Sequence record: NZ_CP082905.1
Direction: 5' to 3' (one strand)
From: a plasmid
DNA length: 64,000 bases
This document shows positions 6,876-26,728 of the stretch, piece after piece (the first letter of the stretch is position 1; each line of letters starts with the position of its first letter). Both the position numbers and the translations under genes were made by a program. A model generated the notes under the pieces. That model ran no database searches. It was not told the origin of the DNA and was given only the letters and a program-made list of their open reading frames with translations.

Positions 6876-6977
6876 ATGTTCGGTTTAATTGACGTGAACA
6901 GCTTTTACGCCAGTGCAGAGAAGGTCTTCCGGCCTGACCTGAAAAATGCACCAGTGGCCATCCTGTCGAATAATGAT
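6876..6977 (+). pseudogene. umuC: umuC 5' fragment (first ~34 codons), reading into unrelated sequence after SNND
   Basis: MFGLIDVNSFYASAEKVFRPDL..AILSNND matches the UmuC/MucB N-terminus; diverges then stops (LSGEKS*); TGA/ATG coupling with umuD. Confidence 0.75.
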
Positions 6978-7241
6978 CTGAGTGGTGAGAAAAGTTAGTT
7001 AATTTGATGCTGTTCATGTCAGCAGCTCTAGAGAGTTTTTTGGTCTTCTATGAGCGAAAAGCGGACATTGAGTGCTCGAAGATTGATTGCATCCTTCTGG
7101 CTTACCTGTGCAGGCATACCGTAAACGAATTGTCACAAAATGAGCTACTGCCAGATAAACACATCTGAATTAACGAATATATGATTGACTCACAAATTGC
7201 AGGCAGTGAGAATGTCTTCAATTCCGGACTCAGGAGTCATC

Positions 7242-7595
7242 ATGCCTCAATTTCAGCCTCTTCAGCTTTTCAAAAATCTCTCTGATGAAACACGACTCAG
7301 TCTGGTGCTGCTGTTGCGCGAAAAAGGAGAGCTTTGCGTCTGTGAACTCACGTCAATGCTGAAAGAAAGTCAGCCTAAAATTTCCCGGCATCTGGCGTTA
7401 CTCAGAGACGCCGGTCTGCTTATCGACAGGCGAGACGGCAAGTGGGTTTATTATCGGTTGTCACCACACATGCCCGCCTGGGCTGCTGCGGTAATTGAGC
7501 AGGCTTACCTGTGTCAGCGCGATGACATTCTGCAACTCAGCCAGCAGGCTGAAAGGAATAACGCGACCACCAACGGCAAGCCTGTCTGCATTTGA
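7242..7595 (+). CDS. arsR: Arsenical resistance operon repressor ArsR
   Basis: [52 protein letters not shown] (ELCVCEL metal-binding site plus HTH). Confidence 0.88.
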
Positions 7596-7683
7596 AATTT
7601 ACCCAAACACATATGATTTTACATACTTGTTAGCAGGGCTGTCTTTAGTCCCGTTTACAGGCTTTATATCCAAAGGAGAAAGT

Positions 7684-8967
7684 ATGTTTCTGGCAGGCGC
7701 TATATTCGTCCTGACACTGGTGCTGGTTATCTGGCAGCCAAAGGGACTCAGTATTGGCTGGAGTGCAGTTATCGGGGCCGCGCTGGCGCTGCTGACCGGC
7801 GTGGTGCATATCGGTGATATTCCGGCCGTCTGGCAGATTGTCTGGAACGCCACGGCCACGTTTATCGCGGTTATTATCATCAGCCTGCTGCTTGATGAGT
7901 CTGGCTTTTTTGAGTGGGCTGCACTGCACGTTTCCCGCTGGGGAGGCGGTAAAGGCAGGCTGCTGTTCACGTATATTGTTCTGCTGGGTGCGGCAGTGGC
8001 GGCCCTGTTTGCCAATGACGGGGCGGCACTTATCCTGACGCCTATTGTCATCGCCATGCTACTGGCGCTGGACTTCAGCCCCGGCGCCACACTGGCGTTT
8101 GTGATGGCGGCAGGCTTTATCGCGGACACATCCAGCCTGCCGCTCATCGTATCGAACCTGGTCAACATCGTGACGGCGGACTTTTTTAAGCTGGGGTTCA
8201 GCGAATATGCGTCTGTCATGGTGCCGGTAAATATCGCGTCCGTGGCGGCCACGCTGGTTATGCTTCACCTCTTTTTCCGTAAAGACCTCCCGATCACTTA
8301 TGACCTGGCGAAACTGAAGGTGCCACGGGAAGCCATTCGAGACATGCGAACCTTTAAAGCCGGATGGCTGGTCCTGCTCCTGCTGCTGGCCGGTTTTTTT
8401 GCCCTGGAGCCGCTCGGCGTTCCGGTCAGTCTGGTGGCAGCGGTGGCGGCATTTATTCTGTGGCTTGTTGCCCGGAAAGGGCACGTAATTGACACCCGTA
8501 AAGTGCTGAAAGGCGCGCCCTGGCAGATCGTCATCTTCTCGCTGGGTATGTATCTCGTAGTATATGGCCTGCGCAACGCCGGACTGACGGATTACCTCTC
8601 AGCCATCCTGAACCGGTTTGCAGAACACGGCGTCTGGAGCGCCACACTCGGTACCGGTTTTTTGACGGCCTTTTTGTCATCGGTGATGAACAACATGCCT
8701 ACCGTCCTGGTCGGTGCCCTGTCCATTGATGGCAGCACGGCTCAGGGCGCGGTGAAGGAGGCGATGATTTACGCCAACATCATCGGCTGCGATCTCGGCC
8801 CCAAAATCACACCCATCGGCAGCCTGGCGACCCTGCTGTGGCTGCACGTGCTGGCGCAGAAAAACATTACCGTCAGCTGGGGCTACTACTTCCGCGTGGG
8901 CATTGTGATGACCCTGCCGGTGCTTTTTGTGACGCTGGCCGCGCTGGCCCTGCGCCTGTCTGTTTAA
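7684..8967 (+). CDS. arsB: Arsenite/antimonite efflux pump ArsB
   Basis: 428 aa; [11 protein letters not shown]...[39 protein letters not shown] closely matches ArsB; RBS AAAGGAGAA upstream of ATG 7684. Confidence 0.95.
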
Positions 8968-9016
8968 CCTTAACCCCGGGGCTGCGTCTGCGCAGCTCCG
9001 TAACGGAGTACCGTTT

Positions 9017-9445
9017 ATGACTGATATCACTATTTACCACAACCCGGCCTGCGGGACGTCGCGTAACACCCTGGCACTTATCCGCAACAGTGGCGTGGAG
9101 CCAACAGTGATTTTGTATCTGGAGACGCCACCAACCCGCGACGAGCTGAAAAAGCTGATAGCAGATATGGGTATCAGCGCCCGCGCCCTGCTGCGCAAAA
9201 ATACAGAGCCGTATGAGCATCTGGGGCTGGCAGAAGACCGGTTCAGCGATGATGAACTGCTGAATGCGATGCTGGCTCACCCCATCCTCATCAACCGCCC
9301 GGTGGTTGTGACGCCACTCGGCACAAGGCTCTGTCGTCCGTCTGAAGCGGTTCTGGACATTCTGCCTGACCCGCAGAAGGAAGCATTTACGAAAGAGGAC
9401 GGCGAAAAAGTCATTGATGAACACGGAAACCGGATCAGCCACTGA
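9017..9445 (+). CDS. arsC: Arsenate reductase (glutaredoxin-coupled) ArsC
   Basis: MTDITIYHNPACGTSRNTLALIRNSG with catalytic Cys12; 142 aa. Confidence 0.95.
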   Translation: MTDITIYHNPACGTSRNTLALIRNSGVEPTVILYLETPPTRDELKKLIADMGISARALLRKNTEPYEHLGLAEDRFSDDELLNAMLAHPILINRPVVVTPLGTRLCRPSEAVLDILPDPQKEAFTKEDGEKVIDEHGNRISH

Positions 9446-9511
9446 TTTTTCAGTACGCTGCCGGCAGGAAGGGAGACGCAAAAACAGAAGCCGGCAGATG
9501 CCGGCTTTTTT

Positions 9512-10234
9512 TCATATGCTGCGCTGATTAACCCGCTCAGACAGCTGCGCGGCACTCTCTTTCCTTTCGCTGTAGCGATCGGTCAGGTAGTCACTGCGAC
9601 CCCGCGTCAGCAGAGTGAACTTCATCAGCTCCTCCATTACGTCCACGATGCGGTCGTAGTATGGCGAAGGCTTCATGCGACCATCTTCATCAAATTCGGC
9701 CCAGGCTTTTGCCACGGATGACTGATTCGGGATAGTGATCATACGCATCCAGCGGCCGAGGATGCGCATCTGGTTGACGGCATTAAACGACTGCGAGCCG
9801 CCACTGACCTGCATAACGGCGAGAGTTTTGCCCTGAGAAGGCCGCACCGCCCCCGACGTCAGGGGTATCCAGTCTATCTGCGCCTTCATGATGCCGGTCA
9901 TGGCGCCGTGCCGTTCCGGCGAGCACCAGACCATGCCTTCGGACCAGAGAACCAGCTCGCGCAGCTCTGCAACTTTCGGATGCGTCTCCGGGGCGTCATC
10001 GGGCAGGGGCAGGCCGGACGGGTTAAAAATTTTCACTTCGGCACCCATTGCCGTCAGCAGCCGGGCCGCCTCTTCCGTTGTGAGACGGCTGTATGAGCGT
10101 TCCCGCAGCGAGCCGTACAGCATCAGGATGCGGGGCGGGTGCGCTACTTCTGCAGCCCTCAGCTTATCTTCAGTCAGCGGCACGTCCAGGAGTGAAGTAT
10201 CAATATTTTTCAGGGTATCGTTCATGTTGTTCAC
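9512..10234 (-). CDS. arsH: ArsH, NADPH-dependent FMN reductase
   Basis: 240 aa; [26 protein letters not shown]...[20 protein letters not shown] typical of ArsH. Confidence 0.88.
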
Positions 10235-10563
10235 AATGAGGTCTCTTCATGAGTCGTCACGGTTGACAGACTGCAGCTGCCACCTGCACAGCATTCTTCT
10301 GTCAGAAAGGCCATCAGCTGTTCAAGCTGCACATAGCAGGGTTTGCAGAACAGGGTACGGCTCTGCCGCTCCTGGCTGACCAGCCCGGCGGACATCAGCG
10401 CGGAAATATGATGACTGAGCGTGGAGGGCGGAATACCGAGGCGCTTCTGCAGAACGCCGACCGGCAGGCCGTCATGACCCGCTCTCACCAGCTCCCGGTA
10501 CACGCTGAGACGGGTCGGATGCCCCAGCTCCCGAAGCGCATTTGCTGCTGTATTTAAATCCAT
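10231..10563 (-). CDS. ArsR/SmtB-family metalloregulator (second copy, heads the arsH transcription unit)
   Basis: HTH ...[38 protein letters not shown] plus C-terminal Cys cluster CCAGGSC; ATGA overlap with arsH. Confidence 0.8.
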
Positions 10564-10611
10564 GCGGCCTCCTTAAACTATATTTCCAGAATAATGGAAA
10601 TGTAGACAGCG

Positions 10612-11838
10612 TCAAATATTTTTCCCCGGAATGGATGGCACGTTCTTATCCCGGTTCTGTCCAGCAGAGGAAGGATGGCGACGCCAGATCACTATGGAAA
10701 TCGCCGTGATGAACAGGGTAAGGATGGAAGATAAAAGCAGCGTGCCGGGTATGCCGTATCGCTCCAGCAGTATGGCGTAAGCTGACGGAGCGAGCGCCGC
10801 GAGTAAAAAAGCTGGTGACAGCAGTACGCCTGTTTTACGGGTATACTGCTGCGGATCAAACAGCACAAGAGGTAGTACGGCCTTAACTACCGTACTCAGT
10901 CCGTTCACAGCTCCGTAACTCAGAATAAAGATGGCTGTAGCCACAGGGGTAACATTACCTGCAAGGCCGGCCAGAAAGCAAAATGGCAGCAGAATGCCGG
11001 TAACCAGGCTCAGACGGATCGCAGAGGTACGTGCGCCAGAAGCCACGTCCAGCAGTCTGGCGCTCACCTGTCCCACTCCCCACAACATACCCGCCACAGC
11101 GGGCATACCATAAGCGGCCAGTATCTGAGGAAAATGAGTGGACATGCCGGTGGAAACAAAGCTTATCAGCGCTATTAGCGTGGCGTACCACAGGCCGCTG
11201 ATGAATGCTTTTCGGTCTTCTGCTGTTCCGATCGCCGGAAGAGCGGGCTGCCCGGCAACGGGAGGTTGACTCCGATGCCCTGCCGGAACGGTGGACAGAA
11301 AAAGCAGGCTGACAATGCCCGCACAGCCGTAAACGATAATCGCATGCCGCCAGTCGGTAATGTGCAGTAGCGCTGCGCCAGCTGGCCAGAACGCGGCTGA
11401 AGCGAGGCCACCCAGCAGGGTGACCAGGGAGACTGCCCGGCGGGCCCCTGCGCCTGCGGTTTCTACTAGCAGAGCAAACGCGGCATCATACAGAGCAAGT
11501 CGCATGCCGGCTCCCATCAGGAGCCAGACGGCAACCCACGATGCTGTTGAATGGGTAAAAGCCATCAGAAAACAACCGAGGACTATGGCGAAGGTTCCCG
11601 CCATCATCATCGTATGTACGCCGGTACGGGACATAAGGGGGCCGGTAAGCGGCGAAACAAGCCCCATAACAAGCATGGCAGTAGTCAGCCCGGAGAATGT
11701 CACAGCCGGCGACCAGCCTGTCTCCGCCATGATGGCGGTCCCGAAGACTCCCGGCATATAGAATGTGATACCCCAGTTGATTAGCTGCGTCATGCCAATG
11801 CAGAAAATGGTGCGGCCTGTCAGATGCCCGTCAGTCAA
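10612..11838 (-). CDS. MFS family transporter (12-TM)
   Basis: 408 aa hydrophobic with MFS-like repeats; forms an operon with the upstream GNAT gene, divergent from the LysR gene. Confidence 0.75.
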   Translation of the reverse strand: MTDGHLTGRTIFCIGMTQLINWGITFYMPGVFGTAIMAETGWSPAVTFSGLTTAMLVMGLVSPLTGPLMSRTGVHTMMMAGTFAIVLGCFLMAFTHSTASWVAVWLLMGAGMRLALYDAAFALLVETAGAGARRAVSLVTLLGGLASAAFWPAGAALLHITDWRHAIIVYGCAGIVSLLFLSTVPAGHRSQPPVAGQPALPAIGTAEDRKAFISGLWYATLIALISFVSTGMSTHFPQILAAYGMPAVAGMLWGVGQVSARLLDVASGARTSAIRLSLVTGILLPFCFLAGLAGNVTPVATAIFILSYGAVNGLSTVVKAVLPLVLFDPQQYTRKTGVLLSPAFLLAALAPSAYAILLERYGIPGTLLLSSILTLFITAISIVIWRRHPSSAGQNRDKNVPSIPGKNI

Positions 11839-12362
11839 CCTGTGCTCTCCGGAAATGTGGCGTCGCCCTGCCCGAGCGTACGCTGCAGGATGACCGTATC
11901 AAGCCAGCGTCCGTGCTTGAAGCCCACAGATTTGAGCGTTCCTGTAATGCTGAAGCCCGCCGCGCGATGCAGGGCAAGAGAGGCGGTATTTTCGCTGTTT
12001 CCGACTACGGCCACGAGCTGGCGAAAGCTACGGGCCTCTGCCCATGCGACCGCACTCGATAACAGCTTTTTTCCGATCCCCTGGCCCTGAAAGTTGGGGG
12101 CAATATATACAGAGTCCTCCAGGGTGAATCTGTAGGCGCACCGTTCCCGGTAGAGTGACAGGTAGCAGTATCCGCGCACATTGCCGTCCTCAACCGCCAC
12201 AAACCAGGGCAGTCCTGCTGCACGCACCTTTTTCAGACGGGCTGTCATTTCAGCCAAATCCGGCGGTTCGGTTTCAAAAGTGGCGGTGCCATGCAATACG
12301 TGATAAGCATAAATCTGCTGGATGGCAGGAATATGTCGTTCATCTGCTTCGGTTATTTCCAT
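11835..12362 (-). CDS. GNAT N-acetyltransferase, phosphinothricin-acetyltransferase (PAT)/ArsN1-like
   Basis: 175 aa; acetyl-CoA motif QGQGIGKKLL; overall PAT-family layout; 4-nt overlap with the MFS gene. Confidence 0.7.
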   Translation of the reverse strand: MEITEADERHIPAIQQIYAYHVLHGTATFETEPPDLAEMTARLKKVRAAGLPWFVAVEDGNVRGYCYLSLYRERCAYRFTLEDSVYIAPNFQGQGIGKKLLSSAVAWAEARSFRQLVAVVGNSENTASLALHRAAGFSITGTLKSVGFKHGRWLDTVILQRTLGQGDATFPESTG

Positions 12363-12460
12363 CGGTACGGCTCCTTCTACGGTCAGAAGCAGAGACTAAC
12401 CCGAATGAATAATTTCAGACAGGCAGCAGGACTTATCAGCGGCATAAGGAAAATTTTGGT

Positions 12461-13366
12461 ATGGCAAACCTGAACCTCGATTACCTGGCTACTTTCAGAC
12501 TGGTCGTCAGCCGGGGCAGTTTCTCCGGCGCGGCTGAAGCACTTAGCCTGTCGCAGCCGGCAGTGAGCCTGCAGATAAGACAACTGGAGCAGGCGCTTCA
12601 GGTCCGGCTTATTGAGCGAACCAGCCGGGGAGTAAGGCCCACGCCTGCCGGGCTGACTCTCGTTGAGCACAGCATGAAAATTGATGCAGTGGTAAGTACA
12701 GCAGTTGAATCGGTGTGCCTGCATTCCGACGAGATAACCGGCACTGTTACTGTCGGCACAGGCGCAACGGCCTGTATTCATCTACTGCCCCCCTTACTGC
12801 AGCAACTGCGGCAGGCCCATCCCCTGCTGAAGGTGGACGTACGCACAGGTAACACTTCCGATATTGTGCGGGGCGTGGAGGAAAATCGTATAGATATTGG
12901 CCTGGTGACTCTGCCAGCCGCAGGTAAAAACCTGAACATCATCCCGCAGGGTACGGATGAGTTTGTTGTCATCATGGAAAAGGATGCATCAGAGCAGAGC
13001 GCGAAAATATGGACTCCGGGCGCCTTGCTGCCGCTGCCGCTGATTATCTTTGAACCGGGAAGCGGGACACGCGCCCTGATTGACCAGTGGTTCCGGGAGA
13101 CGGGACATATTGCCTGCCCGGTCATGGAGCTTGGCAGTATCGAGGCTATTAAAAGAATGGTCCGTGCAGGTCTTGGCTACAGCATTGTTCCCCGAATGTC
13201 CGTTGCATGCATCGAGGAAAGATCGGGGCTCGATCTTTACTCTGTGACGCCCTCTCTTCACCGGACTCTCGGGGCAGTTATGCGGGAGGACCGGATTGTA
13301 AGCAGAGGAATCAATGAAGTGCTGAAAAGCCTAAACAGCAGTTTTGCAAAAAACGAAATCATATAA
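12461..13366 (+). CDS. LysR-family transcriptional regulator
   Basis: N-terminal HTH LDYLATFRLVVSRGSFSGAAEALSLSQPAVSLQIRQLEQAL plus co-inducer domain; divergent from the GNAT-MFS operon. Confidence 0.88.
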   Translation: MANLNLDYLATFRLVVSRGSFSGAAEALSLSQPAVSLQIRQLEQALQVRLIERTSRGVRPTPAGLTLVEHSMKIDAVVSTAVESVCLHSDEITGTVTVGTGATACIHLLPPLLQQLRQAHPLLKVDVRTGNTSDIVRGVEENRIDIGLVTLPAAGKNLNIIPQGTDEFVVIMEKDASEQSAKIWTPGALLPLPLIIFEPGSGTRALIDQWFRETGHIACPVMELGSIEAIKRMVRAGLGYSIVPRMSVACIEERSGLDLYSVTPSLHRTLGAVMREDRIVSRGINEVLKSLNSSFAKNEII

Positions 13367-14116
13367 ATATTATTCGATATCTAAACCGGACAGGTCCGGT
13401 CTACTCTTCCCGGCGAAGTATCACTACAGCGTTTACCAGCTACCAATGTCCGCTCCTGGCACACAGCGGACATTCAGCCCGGTTAAGCTTCCCTGCCTGA
13501 AGCGAACGAGTCTGGCGTGCAGTGCGCAATCAGCCCTGAATGCCGCTGAGAGTGACACTGATGTTAAACGGCACAGCGCGCCCGGCATAGCCGGTTACAG
13601 GCACATACATCGCTGCCGCATCATACCTTTCTCTGAACGGCTTAAACCAACTCCCAGCAAAAAAACAGCTATGGTAAACCCTTTTAACTACGGTGAACGG
13701 GCTTTACGGCGCTTGCGACGTTAAGTCTTGGCGTCTGCAGCTTACTGCTAACGCCAGGGGGCAATATAACTCTCAGCGACAGCCATAGCACTTAACACGC
13801 TAGCCGCTAACTTAAGTAAGCAACCGATACAAAACACATAGTAAAAGTTAGTTGTTAAATACTTCTTAAAATCATTAGCTTATTAATAACTAATTGTTAG
13901 TTTCATTCAGATACAATGACGGCTGCGTGATTGCCCGCAGCAGGGAAGCGAAGAAGTATGTGAAAATGGGCGAGCCGTGGTTTAAAATAAAAAATCAGCA
14001 ATTCCCCGAGAAAATACATTTCTTTTCAAGCAATTATGCGCTTTAGTAAGTTAAGTGGAATGCAACATTTGCGGTATAGACTTTAGCCAGTTGTCCTGAA
14101 CTGAAAGGGGAAGGCC

Positions 14117-15106
14117 GTGAACACAAAAACACATTCCACTTCGGCTTTGCTGCTGGCCGGGCAGTGGCTTAAAATTCTTTCGAATTTAGGAAGAGCCAGC
14201 TCAACTATTAAAGCCTATCGAAGTGCCCTGACGCATTTTTTTGCCTTCTGTGAAATACACGATATTGCTCCTGAAAGGGCTTCCTTTGAAGACATTGCAG
14301 GATATATCCGCCCTCAGCTCCCTGATATGCCGTCACCCGTTGCCAGCGCCACACTCCAGTTGCGCATTTCAGCTCTTCGCCTCTGGTATGACTTTCTGAT
14401 CTACCAGGATATTTGCCGTCTCAACCCGTTACCCCGTTCGGGTTTGCCTGGTGCCATTTATACCGGGCGAGGCCTGATCCCACGTATCACCCGCCTCCCC
14501 GTTATTCCCGATGACGGGCAGTGGCTCAGGTTCCTGAAACACGTTTCTGCCGCGTCCCTGCGTGACCGGCTGATGCTTGCTCTGGCGTATTATGGCGCGC
14601 TCCGGCGTACGGAAGTGACGGCTCTGAGGCTTGAGGACATTGATCTGGCTCACCGCCTGATACGCATCCGCGCAGAGACGACGAAAAACAGACGGGAAAG
14701 AATGGTCTGCTACAGCGCTGACGTTGCGCGGGTACTGGCAAATCATTTCCAACAGCTACGGCTGGCAGGCTGGTCAGGCGGTGCTCTGTTCCGTTCCGCC
14801 TCTGACCGTAATTACGGCGCTCCGCTCTCGTTCTGGAGCTGGAGTAAAACCGTGCGGAAATGGGCGACAGAGACTGATCAGCCAGACATCACCACGCATA
14901 CTTTTCGTCACCTCCGGCTGACGCACCTGGCACGGGCCGGATGGAAACTGCATGAACTGGCTACGTATGCAGGGCACAGGGACCCGCGTACCACACAAAT
15001 TTATATTCATCTGTCGGGAACGGATATGGCTGCCCGCATGGCTGCTGCCGTCGCTGAAACCGACCGGAAGATCGCAGAGCTTATCTTTCAGGCGGGGGCA
15101 GTGTGA
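14117..15106 (+). CDS. Tyrosine-type site-specific recombinase (329 aa)
   Basis: C-terminal catalytic region HTFRHLRLTHLARAGWKLHELATYAGHRDPRTTQIYIH (R..H..Y); preceded by a ~390-bp AT-rich non-coding tract. Confidence 0.85.
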   Translation: MNTKTHSTSALLLAGQWLKILSNLGRASSTIKAYRSALTHFFAFCEIHDIAPERASFEDIAGYIRPQLPDMPSPVASATLQLRISALRLWYDFLIYQDICRLNPLPRSGLPGAIYTGRGLIPRITRLPVIPDDGQWLRFLKHVSAASLRDRLMLALAYYGALRRTEVTALRLEDIDLAHRLIRIRAETTKNRRERMVCYSADVARVLANHFQQLRLAGWSGGALFRSASDRNYGAPLSFWSWSKTVRKWATETDQPDITTHTFRHLRLTHLARAGWKLHELATYAGHRDPRTTQIYIHLSGTDMAARMAAAVAETDRKIAELIFQAGAV

Positions 15107-17422: not shown

Positions 17423-17462
17423 GCCGGTCGGTTGAAATCAGTCTTCTGATGTCAGCTGTAAA

Positions 17463-17813
17463 CTATTTATTCAGCCATTTTTCCAGATGTTCAATCTCCG
17501 CCTTCTGTGCTTTGATGACATCTTCAGCCATATTTCTCATTTCAGGATCTTTTCCGTACTTCAGCTCTGTTTCGGCCATGGCTATCGCGCCTTTATGGTG
17601 CTCAGCCATGCCTCTGGCAAAAGCCCTGTCTGCATCCTGCTCCTTCATCGCATCCATCATGCTGCGGTGCATATTCTGCATGCCGGCCATGTATTCTTTT
17701 GAGGCCGGGGACATATGCATGTCCTGCGTCATCTTCATATCTGGCTTCTGTGCCATAGCCGCAACTGGCAGAACAACCAGCAGGGAAACCAGGGCTGTCT
17801 GTAATTTTTTCAT
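17463..17813 (-). CDS. Secreted DUF305-like metal-binding protein (116 aa) sitting where pcoE normally is
   Basis: Signal peptide MKKLQTALVSLLVVLPVAAMA; Met/His-rich; HH..GAI.MA...GKDPEMR..A..VI..Q..EI..L..WL resembles the DUF305 motif. Confidence 0.6.
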   Translation of the reverse strand: MKKLQTALVSLLVVLPVAAMAQKPDMKMTQDMHMSPASKEYMAGMQNMHRSMMDAMKEQDADRAFARGMAEHHKGAIAMAETELKYGKDPEMRNMAEDVIKAQKAEIEHLEKWLNK

Positions 17814-17957
17814 GATCCGTTCCTTTACTGGGCTAAGATACTCAAGTTTAGTTAAGCACCCGGGATCGTTTCACAAAACCGGGAAAGAAATCCTTGATTT
17901 AAAGCAGTTCAGAATTATTACGGGCGAAAGCATGAAGAAAGCGCACATCAACGTAAA

Positions 17958-19355
17958 TCATGCTGCTGGTATTTTTACCGTAAACGTAACGATGTCTTCG
18001 TCCAAAAAAACCTGCAATGTACCGTTGTGAGCCTGAACAACGGCTCGCGTGATGGAAAGGCCCAGGCCAGCACCGTCCGTGTTATGTTGCCGGGACGAGT
18101 CGCCCCGGTAAAAGCGATCAAAAAGCCTGTCCAGATTTTCCTGCGTGATGGCTTCCGTGCGGTTAGATATATAAACAAACGCCATCCCGATCTGCTGTTC
18201 TGCCCGGATCAGGATCGCCGCGCCGTCTGAAGAGTACTTTATGGCATTGGTTATCAGGTTGCTCAGCGCCCGGCGTAGCATCAGACGATCGCCCTTCATG
18301 CTGGCCTCCCCTTCAAGCGTCAGGGTTTTACCGTTTTCAGCGGCCAGCGGCTCGAAAAATTCGATTAGTTCTTCGAGTTCTGCCTTTGCGGAAAAAATCT
18401 CATTTTCCAGCGCCAGCAGCCCGTTTTCAGACTTCGCCAGAAACAGCATGTCGCTGCTCATTCTGGCAAGTCGGCCCAGCTCCTCCAGGTTTGAGAAAAG
18501 CACTTCCCGGTAGCTGGCAGCGTCACGCTCCCGGGACAGGGCAACCTGCGTCTGCATCATCAGGTTACTTACGGGAGTGCGCAGCTCATGGGCTATGTCA
18601 GATGAAAACTCTGACAGGCGCCTGAAAGAGCCCTCCAGTCTCTCCAGCATGCTGTTAAACTCGGCTACGGTAGGCATAAGCTCCGAAGGAAGGTGTCGGG
18701 CCGGCAGGCGCTCACTGAGATTATTAACGGTAATAGCCGAAGCCAGCCGGTTTATTTCATTCAGCGGCCGGAGTCCGATGCGGGTGGCAAGCCAGCCCAG
18801 CAAGACAGAAAGAAAAATCAGTCCCCCGTTAAGCCACATCAGCCACTCTTTCAGCTGGCCGATAAATTCATCATGAAAGCCAGTATCGTAGGCGGCTGTT
18901 ATCAGCACGTCCCGGTGCCTGCCCGCGTTCTCTGCACCGATTTTTTTAATCATGACGTTATAGCGCCAGCCGTCTTCCTCCACCGTCTGCAGGGTGTTCA
19001 GCTTCAGAGCCTCACCGGCAAAGCGCTCAGCCGGAACCGGGAAGCCGGGAGAGAAATAGTCGGCGAGTATTTGATTATCAGCAGTCCTGATCGACAGATA
19101 AAGTCCGCTATGGCCCACCATGGCGTCGGCAAGCTTGCGGGCAAGCCCGACGGTATCAAGCTTTCCTGTACGGACTTCACTTTCCAGCAGTTCGGTAGCC
19201 AGCTCAAGCTTACCGGTCAGCAGCGTAAGGTCCTGGCTGCGAAAGTAACTGCCCAGCGCGGCAACCAGCAGAACGCTGGTAAGCAGCCAGACGGACATCA
19301 TGACACCGGCAAAGACCAGGCTAAGTCTGGAAGTCAGAGACCAGTTACGCTTCAT
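17958..19355 (-). CDS. pcoS: Copper-responsive sensor histidine kinase PcoS/CusS family
   Basis: Two TM segments, HAMP, H-box SDIAHELRTP, ATPase G-boxes; ATGA overlap with pcoR. Confidence 0.9.
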   Translation of the reverse strand: MKRNWSLTSRLSLVFAGVMMSVWLLTSVLLVAALGSYFRSQDLTLLTGKLELATELLESEVRTGKLDTVGLARKLADAMVGHSGLYLSIRTADNQILADYFSPGFPVPAERFAGEALKLNTLQTVEEDGWRYNVMIKKIGAENAGRHRDVLITAAYDTGFHDEFIGQLKEWLMWLNGGLIFLSVLLGWLATRIGLRPLNEINRLASAITVNNLSERLPARHLPSELMPTVAEFNSMLERLEGSFRRLSEFSSDIAHELRTPVSNLMMQTQVALSRERDAASYREVLFSNLEELGRLARMSSDMLFLAKSENGLLALENEIFSAKAELEELIEFFEPLAAENGKTLTLEGEASMKGDRLMLRRALSNLITNAIKYSSDGAAILIRAEQQIGMAFVYISNRTEAITQENLDRLFDRFYRGDSSRQHNTDGAGLGLSITRAVVQAHNGTLQVFLDEDIVTFTVKIPAA

Positions 19356-20032
19356 TCTTCACGTATCTCCAGCACGTAGCCAATGCCGCGCACGGTATGG
19401 ATCAGCTTCGGGCTGAAGTCATCATCCACCTTGCTGCGCAGCCGCCGGACAGCCACATCAATCACGTTAGTGTCACTCTCAAAATTAATATTCCAGACCA
19501 GGGAGGAGATGAGATTTCTTGGCAGCACTTCACCGCGACGCTGCAGCAGCAGCTCAAGCAGAACAAACTCTTTTGTGGACAGATGAATTTTTTTGCCGGA
19601 ACGGCTGACGCTCCGGCGGGATATGTCCATCACCAGGTCAGCTATTTCGTACATGCCGGATGCCAGAGAGCGGTTACGCCTGAGCTGGGTCCGGATACGG
19701 GCCAGAAGCTCGGCAAAATCGAACGGCTTGAGAAGATAGTCATCGGCTCCCAGGTCCAGGCCTTTGATTTTTTCGCTGACGTTATCCCTTGCGGTCAGAA
19801 ACAGCACGGGCTCTTCGTGGCGGGCCATTCTCATCTGCCGCAGAATGTCCCAGCCGTCCAGGGAGGGCAGCATCACATCAAGAATAATCAGGTCGTAGCG
19901 CTGCTGAAGGATATGCTCCAGCCCCTGACGGCCGTCATTCACAAGGGTGACGTCATACCCTGCCTCCTGAAGACCCTGTTTCAGGTAAGTCCCGGTTTTA
20001 ATTTCATCCTCGACGATCAGAAGAGTGGTCAT
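19352..20032 (-). CDS. pcoR: Copper response regulator PcoR/CusR (OmpR family)
   Basis: MTTLLIVEDEIKTG...DLIILDVMLP receiver plus winged-helix; 226 aa from internal Met. Confidence 0.9.
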   Translation of the reverse strand: MTTLLIVEDEIKTGTYLKQGLQEAGYDVTLVNDGRQGLEHILQQRYDLIILDVMLPSLDGWDILRQMRMARHEEPVLFLTARDNVSEKIKGLDLGADDYLLKPFDFAELLARIRTQLRRNRSLASGMYEIADLVMDISRRSVSRSGKKIHLSTKEFVLLELLLQRRGEVLPRNLISSLVWNINFESDTNVIDVAVRRLRSKVDDDFSPKLIHTVRGIGYVLEIREE

Positions 20033-20060
20033 GGTATAAGGGCCCTGCAGCTGAGTGTCG

Positions 20061-20993
20061 TTACGCCATACCGTTACCGGGCGACAGCGTGCCAAGCCAG
20101 GCTACGGTCGCCAGAATCAGGATAGACACGCTGAACTCTGTAATAATACTTTTGCGCATCAACGCAATACCCGTCTTATAGTGGCCCTGACCGAGCGCAT
20201 TTTCCAGTGCGGGTGCAAGCCGGAAGCGGTTCGCGGCAGCCAGCAACAGCATAACGAAAAACAAGCCTGTCTTGATTAGCAGGAGCAGCCCGTAGTGGCT
20301 GCCCGGCAAAGATTTGACCGGGTCTTCCACAATGAAGAAAAAGTTAATGACGGCGGTGATGACAATACTCAGCACAATCACCGTGCCGGCCCGGGAAAAG
20401 CCCGTCAGGGCTTCCGCAAGCTGCCGGACGTGGCTGGCCGTCTGCGCCTTTTTGATGCATAACAGAATGGCAAAGGCCGTGAGCGCGCCCACCCATGCAC
20501 CGGCTGCCGACAGGTGGATGATATCGCTCAGCAGATGCAGATAGTAGCTCATACCGTCGTTCATGGCCGCATGACCGCCCCATGCCAGGGTGGCCAGCGC
20601 TGTGCCTCCGGAAAGCGTGAGAACGTAACGCGACAGAACGGCATTGCGCAGGCGCAGGCCCAGTCCGATGAAGGCCAGCACGAGTGCGGCAAGCCGGATA
20701 ACCCAGCTGAGGCCGACCGCAGTCTCACCGATAACCATCTCTATGATGTGGAGCGTGATTTCACCTGCGTCGGTCACGCCACTCATCGCCTGCGCGACCA
20801 GCAGCATATTCGCCAGCGACAGAACAATGCCGACGGATATCAGAATAAAGAAGAACGACCAGACACTGAATAATGACACCGATTTTTTAAGCGTTCCCTT
20901 CACGGCATACAGTTCAAATAAAGGCAGCCCAAACAGAACCATAAGGTCAAGGTAAAGGAAAAAGCGGATAACAATAAAAGTCTGATCGTTCAT
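20061..20993 (-). CDS. pcoD: Copper resistance inner-membrane protein PcoD/CopD
   Basis: 310 aa multi-TM; position after pcoC. Confidence 0.88.
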   Translation of the reverse strand: MNDQTFIVIRFFLYLDLMVLFGLPLFELYAVKGTLKKSVSLFSVWSFFFILISVGIVLSLANMLLVAQAMSGVTDAGEITLHIIEMVIGETAVGLSWVIRLAALVLAFIGLGLRLRNAVLSRYVLTLSGGTALATLAWGGHAAMNDGMSYYLHLLSDIIHLSAAGAWVGALTAFAILLCIKKAQTASHVRQLAEALTGFSRAGTVIVLSIVITAVINFFFIVEDPVKSLPGSHYGLLLLIKTGLFFVMLLLAAANRFRLAPALENALGQGHYKTGIALMRKSIITEFSVSILILATVAWLGTLSPGNGMA

Positions 20994-20997
20994 GGCA

Positions 20998-21378
20998 TTA
21001 TTTCACGCTAAAGCTGACGTTACCCGTGCGCGGGTGTGTATCAGAAGACACCGCACGCCACTCCACCTTGTATGTGCCAGGCACCAGAGGTTTGGCTGGC
21101 GTGATCACCATGGTTTTCGGATCGCCACCGGCGGCCACTTTTGCCGCAACCGCCATCGGGGCATGAGAGGACATGCCGGGCATAGCGGTCATGACGAGAC
21201 GTGCACCAGAAAATTTTGTGACCAGATTCTCAGTAAAGTGCAGCTCCACTTTTGAAGGCGCTGCCACCTGCGCTTTATCAGCAGGGACAGAAGAAGCCAG
21301 TTCCGGATGCGCCTGCGCGGCAAAAGCAGCAACAGAGGCGGCAACAGCGATGACGTAGCCAGCATAATTACGTTTCAT
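20998..21378 (-). CDS. pcoC: Periplasmic copper chaperone PcoC/CopC
   Basis: HPELASSVPA...KFSGARLVMTAMPGMSSHAPM...RAVSSDTHPRTGNVSFSVK closely matches PcoC; start chosen at MKRN (126 aa). Confidence 0.9.
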   Translation of the reverse strand: MKRNYAGYVIAVAASVAAFAAQAHPELASSVPADKAQVAAPSKVELHFTENLVTKFSGARLVMTAMPGMSSHAPMAVAAKVAAGGDPKTMVITPAKPLVPGTYKVEWRAVSSDTHPRTGNVSFSVK

Positions 21379-21413
21379 ATTCATACCTGTCTTGTTTGTT
21401 AGAATTAACTGCA

Positions 21414-22349
21414 TCAGAACCACACGCGGGCACCGAGAAGAAAGCGCAGTTCGTTGTCTTTCTCTCCTTCACGGGTCGCCATATCGGCCGTGTTGCCATA
21501 AAGCTGGCTCCACGATACGCCCACATAAGGCGCAAACTCCCGCTTCATTTCGTAACGAAGGCGCAGGGAAAGCTCGGTACCGGACAGCCCTTTTCCGGTT
21601 TCACGCACCTCATCATCCTTTCCGTAAAAATTAGCTTCAAAAGACGGCTGCAGGATGAGCCGGTTGGTCAGCAGCACGTCATACTCTGCTTCAAACCGGA
21701 GCGCGGTGCGTCCCTGCTCACCGGCAAACGCGGTGAGTTCAGTTTCGAGGTTATACAGCGGCATGCCCTGAAAGCCGGCGGCGGCCCATGTCTGGGGCCT
21801 GCCAGGTTTAAAATCCTGTCGGGCGCCCGCAACCACGTCCCACCAGGGCGAGACAGCGTGCCCCCACAGGGCCTGCACCTCTGCCGACTCGGTTTTTCCG
21901 TCGCTGGTTTCCCCTTCGCTGCGCAGCCAGAGGCGATCAATATCCCCGCCTGCCCAGCCGCTGACGTCCCAGCTGAATCCTCCGGCCTCATTATTTTTCT
22001 GCCACTCAAGCTGATCGGCCAGCAGATACCAGTTCACGTTGCTGTCATGCACCTTATGGCCGTGTACGTCCGGAAACGCAGCCCGGCGGTCGGCGTCCGT
22101 CAGCACCGGAACAGGCGTTCTGCTTTCAGTCGGGGCAGCAGGCTGCATAGACTCCATGCCTTCCATCCCGGACATGGGTTCCATATTGCCCATAGCGGAG
22201 TGGTCCATGCCCGACATTGCACCTATGTCATGCTCCTGCATGTTGTGCGCCGCTTCAGCCCGTGCATCAGGGGCGGCCGTAAGTGCGCTGCCGGCAATGG
22301 CTGCGAAAACCAGCAGTCCGGCCGCCGGGCGGAAAAAGTTATGTTTCAT
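21414..22349 (-). CDS. pcoB: Outer-membrane copper resistance protein PcoB/CopB
   Basis: Met-rich N-terminal segment then beta-barrel-like C-terminus ending ...LLGARVWF; start at MKHNFF with RBS GGTGA. Confidence 0.85.
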
Positions 22350-22383
22350 ATCACCACGCTCAGAAGCTGACATCAGAAGTACC

Positions 22384-24180
22384 TCATTCATTAACCCGGA
22401 CTTCACGGAACATGCCTGTTTCCATATGAAAAAGCAGGTGACAGTGGTAAGCCCAGCGGCCCAGCGCATCGGCCGTCACACGATAGCTGCGGCGCGTGCC
22501 GGGCGGCATATCAATGGTGTGTTTACGTACCAGAAAATTCCCTTCTTCATCTTCAAGGTCGCTCCACATTCCGTGCAGATGAATGGGATGCGTCATCATG
22601 GTATCGTTAACCAGCACGATGCGGACGCGCTCGCCATAGCGGAGCGTGACCGGCTCTGCATCGGAGAACTTGATACCATTGAAAGACCAGGCAAATTTTT
22701 CCATATGGCCGGTAAGATGCAGTTCTATGGTGCGTGAGGGTTCGCGTCCGTCTGGATCGTCAAAAGTGCTTTTCAGGTCAGCGTAGGTCAGAACCCTGCG
22801 GCCATTGTTCCTCAGCCCGATACCCGGATCGCTGAGCTTCGGGGTGGGCATCATGGCCTGCATGTCAACCAGGGGGTTGTTCGTTTCTGATGCCGGATGC
22901 TTCTGCATATCACCCATGCCGCCCATGCTGCTGTGATCCATGCCAGCCATACTGCCTGCCGGGGCGCTTTCCACAGCTGAACCATCCATGCTCTGCATGC
23001 TACCGCCGTCCATACCCTGCATCTGCCCGTGATCCATACCCCCCATGCTGCCGTGATCCATACCCCCCATTCCCATATCATCCATGGTGAGCCAGGGACG
23101 AGGATCGGTGGAAGGAACCGGGGCAGTCATGCCTTCACGAATGGCAAGCGTGCCCCGTGCATAGCCGCTTCTGTCCATGGACTGGGCAAAGATGGTGCAG
23201 GCATCCTGGACGGGCTCCACAATGACATCGTAGGTTTCAGCCACGGCAATACGGAACTCATCCACGCTGACGGGGGTGACGTACTGGCCGTCAGCAGCCA
23301 CCACGGTCATCTTTACGCCGGGAATGCGCACATCGAAGTAGGTCATGGCAGAGCCGTTGATAAAGCGTAGGCGGATTTTTTCGCCTTTACGGAACAACCC
23401 GGTCCAGTTTTTACCCGGGCCCTGACCGTTCATGAGATAGGTGTAAGTCGCACCGCTGACGTCTGCAAGGTCAGTCGGATTCATCTTCATTTCCGCCCAC
23501 ATCTTCCGGTCGGCCAGGGTATTTCCCAGTCCCTTATCCCGGGCATCACGGAAAAAGTCACCAGCAGCAGGCTTGGCGAAGTTGTAGTAGTCGGACTGCT
23601 TTTTCAGTTTTGCAAGAATGGCAGAGGCATTTTCATCTGACCAGTCGGTCAGCATTACCACGTGTTCCCGGTCATACTTAAATGGCTCGGGCTCAGCGGG
23701 ATCAATGATAATCGGGCCGTAAACGCCCTCCTGCTCCTGCAGGCCGGAGTGGCTGTGATACCAGTAGGTGCCATTCTGCTTTACGCGAAATGAATAGACG
23801 TAAGTATCATCGGGTTCAATACCGTGAAAGCTGAGGCCGGGAACGCCATCCATGTTGGCTGGCAGAATAATGCCATGCCAGTGAATGGAGGTTGTTTCTT
23901 TCAGACGGTTTTTAACCCGCAGCGTGACAGTATCACCTTCTTTCCAGCGCAGCAGGGGCCCCGGCAGGCCGCTATTGATGGTTTTGGCATAACGGATGTT
24001 GCCGGTGATATTAAGTGGCGTTTCGGCGATAAACAGGTCGAAATCATTACCGGTAAGCATGTGGGGCTGTACCAGACTTACCGCCGAGAAAGCATTGAAC
24101 GTCTTTATACCAAGACCGCCAGCAACGCTGGCTGCTGCGATCCCTTTGATAAAATTGCGTCGTGAACTTTTAAGCTGCAT
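22384..24180 (-). CDS. pcoA: Multicopper oxidase PcoA/CopA
   Basis: Tat signal SRRNFIKG; cupredoxin His motifs [13 protein letters not shown]; Met-rich [15 protein letters not shown] insert. Confidence 0.95.
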
Positions 24181-24310
24181 AACTGTGCTCCGGAAAAATG
24201 CAGATCATCCCGGGAGAAAATTTCTCCACACCGGAAGTATTAATAATGCAGTCCGGTCAGGAACTTTATTTTTGTTACCGGCAAGCTAACACAACAGGAA
24301 CCCCGACTTG

Positions 24311-24363
24311 ATTACATTTATGTCATGTTAGAACCTGCTGTTTTTGAATTACATTTTTGTCAT
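24311..24363. promoter_or_regulatory. Two tandem copper-box-like sites ATTACATTTaTGTCAT and ATTACATTTtTGTCAT in the divergent pcoA/pcoE-like intergenic region
   Basis: Seen at 24311..24326 and 24348..24363; TGTCAT half-sites resemble CusR/PcoR boxes. Confidence 0.45.
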
Positions 24364-24471
24364 TTTCGTTCACGTTGTTTTTTTTCGGATACGATGAAAG
24401 TCACTGAGGCCGGTAAGGTCCTGGTCCAGAATTAACTGCTATTTTTATCCTTTAAACGTAAGGAATTATGA

Positions 24472-24702
24472 ATGAAAAAGATTATGCTTGCCGCCGCTGC
24501 GGTCCTTCTGTCCGTTTCAGCCGCTCAGGCTCAACCAGCCCCCATGGACATGCCCTGCTGCATGAACAAGAAAGCCCCGGCGGCCTCCATGAATGAACAT
24601 GAGCTGGCGATTCAGGCACATCAGAGCATGAATAACAGCAGTTCTGCCGCACATCAGAACATTATTGAAACGCACCGCAAGATGATGCAGGAAGATAAAT
24701 AA
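24472..24702 (+). CDS. Short PcoE/SilE-family periplasmic metal-binding protein (76 aa)
   Basis: Signal peptide; MNEHELAIQAHQSMNN...AHQNIIETHRKMM resembles PcoE/SilE His/Met repeats; RBS AAGGA. Confidence 0.6.
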   Translation: MKKIMLAAAAVLLSVSAAQAQPAPMDMPCCMNKKAPAASMNEHELAIQAHQSMNNSSSAAHQNIIETHRKMMQEDK

Positions 24703-24996
24703 ACGCAGATGACAGCCCGTAGCCTTAGCTGAAAAAACGCGGGCAAAAATCACCCGGATTTTGTCCTGGTTACTGTTGTTACAGAATGTGTTGTGCATTA
24801 ACCCTCATTACACTGAGTTATCTGAAAAACTTTGTTGAGGCTGTAATCAGCCGGCCCGTCTGACTGTGGCGGGCTTCTTTTTAAAACCCTGTTTCACCCC
24901 TCTCCTGTTACCGTCTGTATAAAACGCTTTTGCAGCAATCAACATTTTGTTCCATGCTTACCACTTCTTTGCATTTAACGATTACGGGAAGAAATT

Positions 24997-25323
24997 ATGT
25001 CTGAACAATACCGCAACTGCATTGAGGCCTGTTATATCTGCGCTGCAACCTGTGACTACTGCGCAACGTCCTGCCTGAAAGAAGAAAATATTGAGATGAT
25101 GCGCGAATGCATCCGGGCGGACATGCAGTGCGCCAGCATCTGCCGCCTGGCAGCTGAGCTGATGACAATGGACAGTGAATTCGCTGCTCAGATTTGTAAG
25201 GTTTGCGCAGAAGCATGCCAGAAATGCGGTGATGAGTGCGCGAAACATGAGCACGAGCACTGTAAGAAATGTGCTGAAGCCTGTTACCGCTGTGCTGAAG
25301 AATGCCGGAAAATGGCAGCGTGA
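24997..25323 (+). CDS. Cys-rich four-helix-bundle copper-storage-like protein (108 aa)
   Basis: About 18 Cys in CxxxC spacing (CIEACYICAATCDYCATSC ...); Csp/DUF326-like. Confidence 0.6.
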   Translation: MSEQYRNCIEACYICAATCDYCATSCLKEENIEMMRECIRADMQCASICRLAAELMTMDSEFAAQICKVCAEACQKCGDECAKHEHEHCKKCAEACYRCAEECRKMAA

Positions 25324-25649
25324 CAGCAAATGGAAGCTGTCCAGTCGCAGCTTCCGGAAAGTACCGCCTGTCTCATTCCAGCCGGTGATTTTTGATACAT
25401 ACACCCGGCGTCAGGGTGGTAAAAATCACCGTTCTTATCCGGACTGCCCGCTATACAGCCAGAAGGGAAATGCCGCGTCCCTGTTCAGGCTTTTTTAAAC
25501 TGACATCCCCCTGTATTAAATATCGTAAAAACCCGGGCGTGTTTTTGCAGCCGGTCGGTACATATGCCCTCTGCCTTATCCACAAAAACGGGGGATAAGT
25601 CCTGTATAATTAATGTACAAATTTGTAGTGTACATCCTCTCAGAAAGAT

Positions 25650-26728
25650 TTAAGTCTCGTGTTGAATTTCTATTCCACATAAACCACTCGATGAGCACCC
25701 GGATCATGTCCTGTATCGAGGAGGTTGTGCCACGCCTGGAAGTCTACTCGGTGGACGAAGGCTTTTGCGACTGCCGCGGTATGGAGATGGCCATGCCTTA
25801 TGAAGATTTTGGTCGCATGATCCGAAGCCATGTCAAAACCTGCACCGGGCTGACGGTCGGCGTCGGGCTGGGCCCGACGAAGACGCTGGCGAAATCAGCG
25901 CAGTGGGCCGGGAAGGAATGGCCGCAGTTTGGCGGGGTGCTGGCGCTCACGCCGGGGAATCCGAGGCGGACCGAAAAGCTACTGTCTCGTCAGCCCGTGG
26001 GGGAACTCTGGGGCGTGGGTTCCCGGCTTGAAAAACGCCTGCAGCTGCTTGGTGTGACCACGGCGCTCGATCTGGCGCGTAGCTCCCCTTCCATTATCCG
26101 TAAAAACTTTGGCGTGGTGCTTGAGCGCACGGTACGTGAGCTCAATGGCGAATCCTGCATCCCGATGGAGGATGCGCCCCCACCAAAGCAGCAGATAGTG
26201 GTCAGCCGCAGCTTTGGCGAGCGCATCACGGAATACGATGCGATGCGTCAGTCAATTTGCGCCTATGCCGAGCGTGTGGCGGAAAAGCTGCGTGAGGACC
26301 GCCAGTTCTGTCATCACGTCTCGGTTTTTATCCGTACGTCGCCCTTCGACACCACCCAGGCCGGATACAGCAACACAGCATTCGTAAAGCTGCACGTGGG
26401 CACGCAGGACACGCGAAACATTACTGAGGCGGCGGTGAAGTCCCTGGACGCTATCTGGCGCCCGGGCTATCGCTATGCGAAAGCCGGCATCATGCTCAGC
26501 GAGCTGCGGCCGAACGGCGTGGCGCAGCTGAACCTGTTTGATGATGAGGCATCGCGTGCCGGCAGCGAGGCCCTGATGAACCTGCTGGATACCATGAACC
26601 GGTCGGGTCGTTACAGCATTGGTTTTGCGGGCAAAGGCATTGACCCAGAATGGAAGATGAAGCGCGAAATGCTAAGTCAGGCCTGGACGACGAACTGGAA
26701 AGATATACCGGTAGCAAAAGTGTGTTAA
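25650..26728 (+). pseudogene. umuC: umuC 3' portion (from about residue 70), separated from its 5' fragment by ~18.7 kb
   Basis: MSTRIMSCIEEVVPRLEVYSVDEGFCD...LTVGVGLGPTKTLAKSA...QLNLFDD aligns with UmuC/MucB C-terminal two-thirds; left boundary approximate. Confidence 0.8.

Follow-up and report, generated by a model that had tools for sequence, protein, structure and literature searches.

We have analyzed a stretch of plasmid DNA of 64,000 nucleotides (sequence record NZ_CP082905.1, called the window throughout), in which the umuC gene of a umuDC operon is interrupted by arsenic- and copper-resistance genes. We find that umuC has been cut by two unrelated site-specific mobile elements of known kinds, and that no part of the gene has been lost. 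The 18.7 kb of inserted DNA comprises two elements of ~6.9 and ~11.6 kb, termed here Elements A and B, with 125 bp of umuC lying between them. A first-pass annotation of the sequence had described one island with its own recombinases; tyrosine-recombinase-type insertion specific for site and orientation, as opposed to IS or transposon activity or a rearrangement, is borne out by our analysis, and the single island gives way to members of two element families. It is very likely that a plasmid umuDC operon under probable SOS regulation has been invaded by the two elements independently, at different umuC motifs and in the same orientation.

umuC is divided into three pieces

Alignment with the intact umuC genes of loci L006-L008 (the prefix L denotes loci used for comparison) places umuC sequence at 6876-6977, 13921-14045 and 25684-26728. 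All three pieces lie on the plus strand. The first (6876..6977) comprises codons 1-34, ending ...LSNND, and matches Pfam IMS over positions 1-30; it is intact behind umuD and its LexA box, as had been noted in the first pass. The second (13921..14045) holds codons 35-76, consisting of GCVIARSREAKKYVKMGEPWFKIKNQQFPEKIHFFSSNYAL plus the TA of Tyr76. The third (25684..26728) runs from the third base of Tyr76 to the stop codon, and matches Pfam IMS, IMS_HHH, IMS_C and DUF4113. Joined together they form an open frame of 1272 nt encoding 423 amino acids, equal in length to intact relatives.

Some 30 codons of umuC had been thought missing or replaced, with the gene resuming at ~25650. Neither is correct. 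Codons 35-76 are present directly upstream of the gene for a recombinase of 329 amino acids, and the gene resumes at 25684/25685; the ATG at 25613 opens a spurious open reading frame (ORF). We located codons 35-76 by aligning positions 13650-14130 to three Pantoea plasmids, in which the recombinase pair follows umuC codon ~76 and not codon 34. Every piece is 82-89% identical to the reference umuC genes. This equal divergence is as expected of one original gene, with no sign of different origins. For the second piece a per-position mismatch count gives ~84% identity, and the break in identity falls at the end of Element B. Aligning the junctions against intact umuC yields exact breakpoints, and there is no transposase or insertion sequence (IS) at any of the junctions. 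Identity to other copies falls sharply at the left junction of Element A and at both junctions of Element B.

Element A is a recombinase-less derivative of an integron-like element

Experiments have shown that integron-like elements (ILEs) enter rulB at a GAT triplet and have CTGAGGG immediately within the junction (Rhodes et al. 2014; PMC4542609). They encode a XerD-like protein of 385 amino acids, a pair of additional recombinase-family proteins and a small "tetR-like" protein (PMC4542609).

Element A (6978..13920, plus strand, 6.9 kb) is an ILE derivative without recombinases, whose ends match those of four-gene ILEs. The left junction GAT|CTGAGTGG fits the published GAT site and CTGAGGG inner motif (PMC4542609). 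The junctions read AATGAT|CTGAG at 6972-6982 and CAGATACAATGAC|GGC at 13908-13923, and AATGA is duplicated at the two edges (6972-6976 and 13915-13919). The terminal sequences are TCTGAGTG and CATTCAGA, within conserved ends of ~90 bp. The left end (CTGAGTGGTGAGAAAAGTTAGTTAATTTG...ATGAGCGAAAAGCGGACATT; 92 bp, 6978..7069, plus strand) is of a subtype that we call type II, and the right end (...AAAAGTTAGTTGTTAAAT...ACTAATTGTTAGTTTCATTCAGATACAATGAC; ~95 bp, 13826..13920, plus strand) matches those of the four-gene ILEs in P. aeruginosa locus L015 and metagenome locus L042, and those of the recombinase-less relatives. The first pass had proposed a look for short att-like core sequences; the bases shared between the junctions are AATGA at Element A and TA/C alone at Element B.

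Reference ends were taken from the P. aeruginosa contig L015, which has a four-gene ILE at the GAT site with both ends matching Element A. The left ends read CTGAGTGGTGAGAAAAGTTAGTTA in Element A and CTGAGGGGTGGAAACCGTTAGTAA in the P. aeruginosa element. The left end also matches the four-gene ILEs of Pantoea rwandensis (L020) and Silvania confinis (L023). Its first 27 nt, retrieved using a degenerate pattern with one ambiguous position, are common to the four-gene ILEs of Pantoea rwandensis, Silvania and metagenomes, and the right end of the four-gene ILE of L042 matches for ~85 nt. Behind the same left end, the Pantoea, Silvania and metagenome loci carry homologues of the four ILE genes that are 73-85% identical to the P. 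aeruginosa set. A tblastn search with ILE proteins found matches in L020, L023, L038 and others, and not in type II elements. None of the four recombination genes is present in 6978-13920 or elsewhere in the window, as judged from the ORF list and Pfam. A possible Tn3-like or Tn7-like reading of the left end was dropped on finding the match to ILEs.

The same 92-bp left and ~95-bp right ends, lacking recombinases, occur in at least four different umuC genes from Yersinia to Mixta, and enclose unrelated cargo. The type II left end is conserved in Y. ruckeri (L009), Pantoea (L004), Mixta (L022 and L024) and metagenome L035, L037, L053, L055 and L058. The enclosed cargo is a glutathione S-transferase (GST) gene in the Y. 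ruckeri plasmid, IS1 only in Pantoea L004 (~360 bp plus IS1), and hmp (flavohemoglobin) with a regulator of the Rrf2 family in L053, L055 and L058. Mixta theicola (L024) has the same ars cargo and the same Element A end in a different umuC; compared with the window it has 48 mismatches in 6881-6971 and none in 6972-7277, so that the break lies at 6971/6972. In K. pneumoniae plasmid pKPN-3967 (L019 12018-~19750) there is a recombinase-less GAT-site element of type I, in which 8 codons from the start of the ILE intA-like gene survive as a deletion scar, and in L057 the intA-like gene is in decay. The L019 cargo comprises a 3'-5' exonuclease and a microcin B17-like operon (a McbA-like precursor of a thiazole/oxazole-modified microcin, McbB, SagB, YcaO, an ABC transporter and a pentapeptide protein). 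Among loci with enough sequence, ~16 elements are recombinase-less and ~9 autonomous.

Pfam assignments were made largely on metagenome locus L026, which is 99.4% identical to the window as far as 22956 and 93% beyond; they confirm the gene content first listed, namely ars genes, a LysR/MFS/GNAT module, the recombinase pair, pco and accessory metal-binding proteins. Within Element A, arsR (7242-7595; HTH_5), arsB (7684-8967; ArsB) and arsC (9017-9445; ArsC) are on the plus strand. On the minus strand lie arsH (FMN_red; 9512-10234), an arsR-family gene (10231-10563), an MFS transporter (10612-11838) and a GNAT acetyltransferase (11835-12362), each identified from its ORF, Pfam and the annotation of relatives. 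A LysR-family regulator follows on the plus strand (12461..13366; ORF and Pfam). The ars block is a common module of Pantoea plasmids, found elsewhere without ILE ends (L005).

The non-coding segment 13560-13810 of Element A has ~67% identity to a region that lacks annotation and is found in ~2,500 enterobacterial plasmids. In plasmid I of K. pneumoniae Kp52.145 the counterpart lies ~0.8-1 kb downstream of IncFII repA, and the segment may therefore be an origin-adjacent or priming-site fragment. It also has a 96.5% match at 1-255 of a P. piersonii plasmid record.

Element B carries a pair of tyrosine recombinases

Element B (14046..25683, +/-2 nt, plus strand, ~11.6 kb) is a two-recombinase element specific for umuC/rulB. 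Its left terminus TAGTAAGTTAAGTGGAATGC (14044..14063, plus strand) contains the inverted-repeat arm GTTAAGTGGAAT at 14050-14061, and its right terminus TCTATTCCACATAAAC (25669..25684, plus strand) contains the arm ATTCCACATAAAC at 25672-25684. The first pass was right that no transposase or IS is visible at the junctions, but it also saw no terminal inverted repeats; the inverted termini of Element B are imperfect and conserved from Pantoea to Pseudomonas. The consensus is TA(G/T)TAAGTTA(A/G)GTGGAATGC ... TATT(C/A)CACATAAA(C/T). Each terminus is present as one copy in the window and one per locus, in fixed orientation. The termini are conserved in 11 loci, from Pantoea, Citrobacter, Raoultella, P. 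aeruginosa and P. syringae, and in 11 loci from five genera the point of insertion is the Tyr codon of SSNYxLY (~codon 76).

The recombinase genes are co-oriented with umuDC and begin 71 nt in from the left end. The small recombinase (329 amino acids; 14117..15106, plus strand; PF00589 at 1.3e-27, PF02899) has a SAM-like N-terminal domain and a catalytic domain with R163, H261-x-x-R264, H287 and Y296. The large recombinase (709 amino acids; 15103..17232, plus strand; Phage_integrase) has its catalytic domain at ~405-590, with R426, H549-x-x-R552, H577 and Y586. Translational coupling of these two genes had been suggested, and indeed the small gene's stop and the large gene's start overlap within GTGTGATG at 15101-15108. 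The catalytic R-H-R-Y residues are kept in both proteins and are invariant in their Pseudomonas homologues. Residues 634-654 of the large protein form a Cys-rich motif, YCxNPFWSxCPHRMACxGCDF, that is invariant between the Pantoea-type and Pseudomonas homologues and is possibly a zinc-binding module. NCBIfam gives only weak Xer-type matches for the recombinases.

Element B is found without Element A in L033 and L002. Compared with these loci the window has 20 mismatches in 13929-14043 and 0-1 in 14044-14345, placing the left break at 14043/14044, and at the other end it has none in 25284-25686 and 54 in 25687-26083, placing the break at 25686/25687. Three plasmids, H2-H4, match window 14032-25683 at 98.6-99.2%. 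The large recombinase was looked up among identical proteins using the ATG start at 15106 (708 amino acids); L033 encodes the identical protein, with Element B in a umuC that is otherwise intact at codon 34/35. The identical 708-amino-acid protein is indexed in 55 assembly-collection blocks, and homologues of the 709-amino-acid protein are present on 545 PLSDB plasmids and in many genera.

The recurrent layout is umuD, umuC codons 1-76, a ~335-amino-acid and a ~715-amino-acid recombinase, cargo, and umuC from codon 77 to the end, with the same termini throughout. The overlapping genes for proteins of ~330 and ~710 amino acids begin 56-71 nt from the junction and are co-oriented with umuDC, and the small recombinase is 55-56% identical to its Pseudomonas partners. 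The pair belongs to a mobile element that has different cargo in Pseudomonas, Citrobacter, Raoultella and Pantoea loci. The cargo is a type III effector in P. syringae pv. pisi pPP1-1 (L016), chlorite dismutase plus a cupin in P. aeruginosa islands (L011-L015), a restriction-modification system in a C. freundii plasmid (L017), a set resembling CBASS (cyclic-oligonucleotide-based antiphage signaling system) in R. ornithinolytica pHNNC189-2 (L018), and OsmC/gorA or ars genes in Pantoea plasmids (L001, L003, L004).

In the window, the cargo genes on the minus strand encode DUF305 (17463-17813), pcoS, a CusS-type kinase (17958-19355), the response regulator pcoR (19352-~20032), pcoD (CopD; 20061-20993), pcoC (CopC; 20998-~21378), pcoB (CopB; 21414-~22391) and the multicopper oxidase pcoA (22384-24180), all assigned by Pfam on L026 and the annotation of plasmids H1-H4. 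On the plus strand are an ORF of 76 amino acids with a weak PcoE match (24472-24702) and a DUF326 four-helix-bundle copper-binding protein (24997-25323; Pfam). Only the pco segment belongs with the recombinase pair. The ars, MFS, GNAT and LysR genes, which had been assigned to the same island, lie on a member of a separate family, at another umuC codon, with its own ends and no recombinase.

The sequence TCCACAAAAAC (25579-25589), 95 bp inside the right end of Element B, repeats the terminal TCCACATAAAC (25674-25684) and could be a subterminal binding site. Subterminal repeats near the ends are not conserved in the Pseudomonas copies. An Rfam scan of 5300-27500 gave no match.

Relation to known systems

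By its target and its ends Element A is a member of the rulB/umuC ILE family; by gene content it is not. It shares with the rulB ILEs insertion at the GAT/GAC codon of SNND, ~100-120 nt into rulB/umuC and in the same orientation, a comparable left-end motif (CTGAGGG (PMC4542609) against CTGAGTGG), a conserved right end, a short repeat (GAT against AATGA) and cargo for stress or metal resistance. Unlike them, it lacks the four conserved genes (for recombinase-family proteins of 385, ~530 and ~615 amino acids and a protein of ~137 amino acids), and its host is an Erwiniaceae-type plasmid rather than Pseudomonas.

The counterpart of Element B is the type III effector 'integron-like element' in rulB of P. 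syringae (Arnold 2000 and Jackson 2011, as cited in PMC4542609). The element of pPP1-1 has a two-gene module for proteins of 336 and 713 amino acids, 55% and 57% identical to those of Element B, inserted after ~76-82 rulB/umuC codons, with the same terminal sequences and a recombinase gene starting ~60-70 nt from the junction. Element B differs in its pco/DUF305/DUF326 cargo and its enterobacterial plasmid host. In the published descriptions, as far as these are accessible, the two-recombinase codon-76 type and the four-gene GAT-site type are apparently not separated, and we found in the literature no description of the codon-76 class in Enterobacterales as such.

Integrative elements of the strand-biased circularizing kind (SEs) resemble ILEs in having a four-gene module (intA, tfp, intB and srap) of the same size pattern, weak similarity in IntA (E = 1.5e-8) and also in IntB, and short imperfect terminal repeats. 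Of their core genes, Element B has only two recombination genes, without tfp or srap, and Element A has none. Comparison of Element B proteins with the IntA, tfp and IntB proteins of SEs and ILEs by hhalign and BLAST revealed no specific similarity. There is no evident sign of the 6-bp donor 'footprint' that characterizes SEs; in 4 of 4 A-type elements the two sides carry the same AAYGA, and umuC is rebuilt exactly.

The Tn554 family of Firmicutes is comparable to Element B at the level of layout: an ordinary and a large tyrosine recombinase lie in tandem at one end, insertion into a DNA-repair gene is specific for site and orientation, and both long terminal repeats and a DDE transposase are lacking. 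Tn554 differs in its third gene tnpC, required along with tnpA and tnpB, its target (att554 as opposed to umuC) and its hosts, Firmicutes as opposed to Gram-negative bacteria. In the loci examined there is no conserved small TnpC-like ORF after the large recombinase. Nor is Element B an integron: the small recombinase scores 64 bits against an integron-integrase cut-off of 265, and there is no cassette array. Non-autonomous derivatives of integrative elements are known as CIMEs, or cis-mobilizable elements, and are conceptually similar to miniature inverted-repeat transposable elements (MITEs). Like CIMEs, Element A has both recombination ends and no recombination genes; unlike them it has sizeable cargo, and its mobilization in trans is putative. 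The GInt/RIT elements (PMC5385486) also have adjacent tyrosine-recombinase genes at one end, variable cargo and site-specific insertion. They differ from both A and B in having three recombinases (plus ginD) and other targets, and no sequence relation was detected.

A model for insertion and its alternatives

We propose that Element B is autonomous. The small and large recombinases would act together on the inverted termini to excise a circle, which would then re-insert in the Tyr codon of SSNYxLY in any umuC/rulB. This mechanism is drawn from the anatomy of the element together with the occupied, unoccupied and differently flanked states. The predicted circle junction is ...ATTCCACATAAA(C)/(TA)GTAAGTTAAGTGGAAT... 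(longer form ...TCTATTCCACATAAA(C)/(TA)GTAAGTTAAGTGGAATGC...), and the umuC site would be repaired to GCGCTTTACCACTCG. In the usual arrangement, the recombinase pair would be transcribed by read-through from the LexA-controlled umuDC promoter. In L033, simple consensus scans of the interval from umuD to the small recombinase gene revealed neither a terminator-like nor a plus-strand promoter-like site, which makes read-through plausible. In the window, Element A lies between the SOS promoter and the recombinase genes of Element B.

Element A would be a non-autonomous ILE derivative that has kept both ends and lost the four recombination genes, movable only with proteins provided in trans by a resident four-gene ILE. 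That it is found in several different umuC genes, its recombination genes having been lost, suggests such trans-mobilization. The predicted excision junction is ...CATTCAGATACAATGA/TCTGAGTGG.... In both elements the metal-resistance genes are cargo.

A number of points weigh against this history. The examined loci contain no circular junction, attP-like junction or tandem copy of Element B. The bases shared at the junctions are only TA/C at Element B and AATGA at Element A, and the crossover positions are unreadable from them. There is no four-gene ILE in the window, so that the helper of Element A is hypothetical, and in ~10 instances the type II left end never lies beside recombinase genes. 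SOS control of Element B is suggested by gene order and simple consensus scans. Finally, Element A could be an immobile relic, having spread through older events or homologous recombination.

The last of these is the alternative that we take most seriously, although we think it unlikely. A four-gene ILE, inserted at this site or in an ancestor, would later have been stripped of its recombinase module and given a new interior, and the ends shared with other genomes would reflect common descent and homologous recombination. The lack of ILE recombinases in Element A and the rest of the window is in keeping with this, as are the plain deletion scar of L019, the decaying gene of L057 and the presence of the ars block in other plasmids without ILE ends. 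Against it, the occurrence of the same recombinase-less ends in at least four umuC genes, around unrelated cargo and from Yersinia to Mixta, is hard to explain without later movement.

It is very improbable that the Element B pair also serves Element A, making the latter a satellite of Element B. A- and B-type elements do co-occur in one umuC (in the window, the L004 plasmid, L053 and L013-L015), and words like GT(T/A)AGTT are found in both sets of ends. Yet the left end of Element A matches four-gene ILEs exactly for 27 nt and its right end for ~85 nt, and neither end matches the Element B termini. Moreover, A-type elements occupy umuC genes without Element B in Y. ruckeri (L009), K. pneumoniae (L019) and L058, and the proteins of Element B lack specific similarity to those of ILEs and SEs.

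We give hardly any credence to the idea that one arsenic/copper island of ~18.7 kb was moved once by the recombinase pair, with ~30 umuC codons deleted or replaced. The whole arrangement is unchanged in L026, L027, L032 and probably Mixta mediterraneensis L022, indicating that the 18.7 kb travels together on this plasmid lineage. However, the 125 bp of umuC (codons 35-76) between the parts leave nothing missing, L033 and L002 have Element B by itself at the same site, and the matches of H2-H4 span exactly Element B. The left end of Element A is found in a different umuC in L024 and fits the ILE family, not the left terminus of Element B, and all copies of the full composite that we found share the same flanks.

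Equally remote is a rearrangement joining fragments of different umuC genes by homologous or illegitimate recombination between plasmids: related plasmids are indeed mosaic (L026 at 22956, the Element A left flank exchanged for an EcoRII system in L028-L030, a deletion reaching into the small recombinase gene in L031) and some have two or three umuC copies, but the three pieces abut to the nucleotide in a full-length frame, are similarly diverged from every reference umuC, and are bounded at both breakpoints by conserved element termini known in many genera.

The plasmid setting

The window resembles a conjugative plasmid of Erwiniaceae type, with ssb (4835-5395), umuD, parMR-like genes (26882-28283), an IncFII-type repA and traI/traD. 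Upstream of umuD lies a LexA-type SOS box, CTGTAAATACATACAG (6396..6411, plus strand), read from the sequence as CTGT-N8-ACAG; the match to this consensus suggests that it functions as such. The umuD gene (6434..6874, plus strand; ORF and Pfam) encodes a Peptidase_S24 protein of 146 amino acids, and its DNA is 86-89% identical to Pantoea-plasmid umuD.

The entire arrangement is present in the metagenome contigs L026, L027 and L032. The Mixta mediterraneensis contig L022 (NZ_JACFXY010000007.1) is 100% identical across window 6192-8880. It departs from the window upstream of 6192, and the umuD-umuC'-Element A junction there lies on another backbone segment. A stretch of ~120 bp in the gap between ssb and umuD (window 6076-6192) has three copies in the leading region of Pantoea plasmid L004 and one each in L001 and L002; the copies in Pantoea plasmids are 80-83% identical.

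In metagenome variants L028-L030 an EcoRII restriction-modification system replaces umuD, umuC' and the left end of Element A, to the left of ~7043. In variant L031, traD (window 57846) is fused to a truncated small recombinase gene (14727), with the intervening DNA deleted. Close relatives of the plasmid come from the hospital-surface Pantoea PSNIH1 and PSNIH2. Among the samples indexed for the identical 708-amino-acid recombinase, several names (OLMM19, BROO17) might suggest metagenome studies of the infant gut or a neonatal unit.

umuC as a possible landing pad

Occupation of both the A and B sites of one umuC recurs in L013, L014, L015 and L053. A third site is seen in pHNNC189-2 (L018 ~30116), where the tmexCD2-toprJ2 SE (proteins of 429, 576, 679 and 154 amino acids) is inserted after ...TACAGCATCGA, in the motif YSIDE. 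This SE sits in the spare umuDC of a B-type element, and its umuC site differs from both of those in the window. In a 2026 paper, tmexCD-toprJ is reported to have moved experimentally into a umuC region.

A complete second umuDC is the last cargo of some two-recombinase elements (L003 13785-15517, L004 23553-26437 and L018 29446-30116), ending ~20-45 bp before the right terminus. The spare umuC is itself invaded: the L004 copy holds a GAT-site element, and that of pHNNC189-2 the tmexCD2 SE.

We tentatively suggest, as a possibility short of even likelihood, that plasmid umuC offers several landing sites to at least three unrelated families of tyrosine-recombinase elements, each keyed to a different conserved motif of the polymerase, with the type II derivatives being a lineage of cargo cassettes mobilized in trans. 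The sites would be SNND for four-gene ILEs, SSNYxLY for two-recombinase elements and YSIDE for tmexCD-type SEs. If this is true, the type II ILE derivatives (with ars, GST, hmp/Rrf2 or IS1 only) would be a tyrosine-recombinase counterpart of MITEs or integron cassettes, and a spare umuDC (L003, L004, L018) would stand in for the disrupted gene and give the next element somewhere new to land. What is moderately new here is how common recombinase-less ILE derivatives are, together with the three-site view of umuC.

An apparent single metal-resistance island is corrected in the annotation to two independent mobile units with exact boundaries, and two excisions could in principle restore umuC. Three literatures, on Pseudomonas rulB ILEs, P. 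syringae effector elements and the umuC-associated spread of tmexCD-toprJ, are joined on one hotspot. Enterobacterial plasmids collect arsenic, copper, restriction-modification, CBASS-like and bacteriocin genes at the same umuC sites. The recombinase-less ILE derivatives offer a simple system in which to ask about trans-mobilized satellites of tyrosine-recombinase elements. Since Element B normally lies directly behind a LexA-controlled promoter, DNA-damaging conditions might raise the mobility of B-type cargo.

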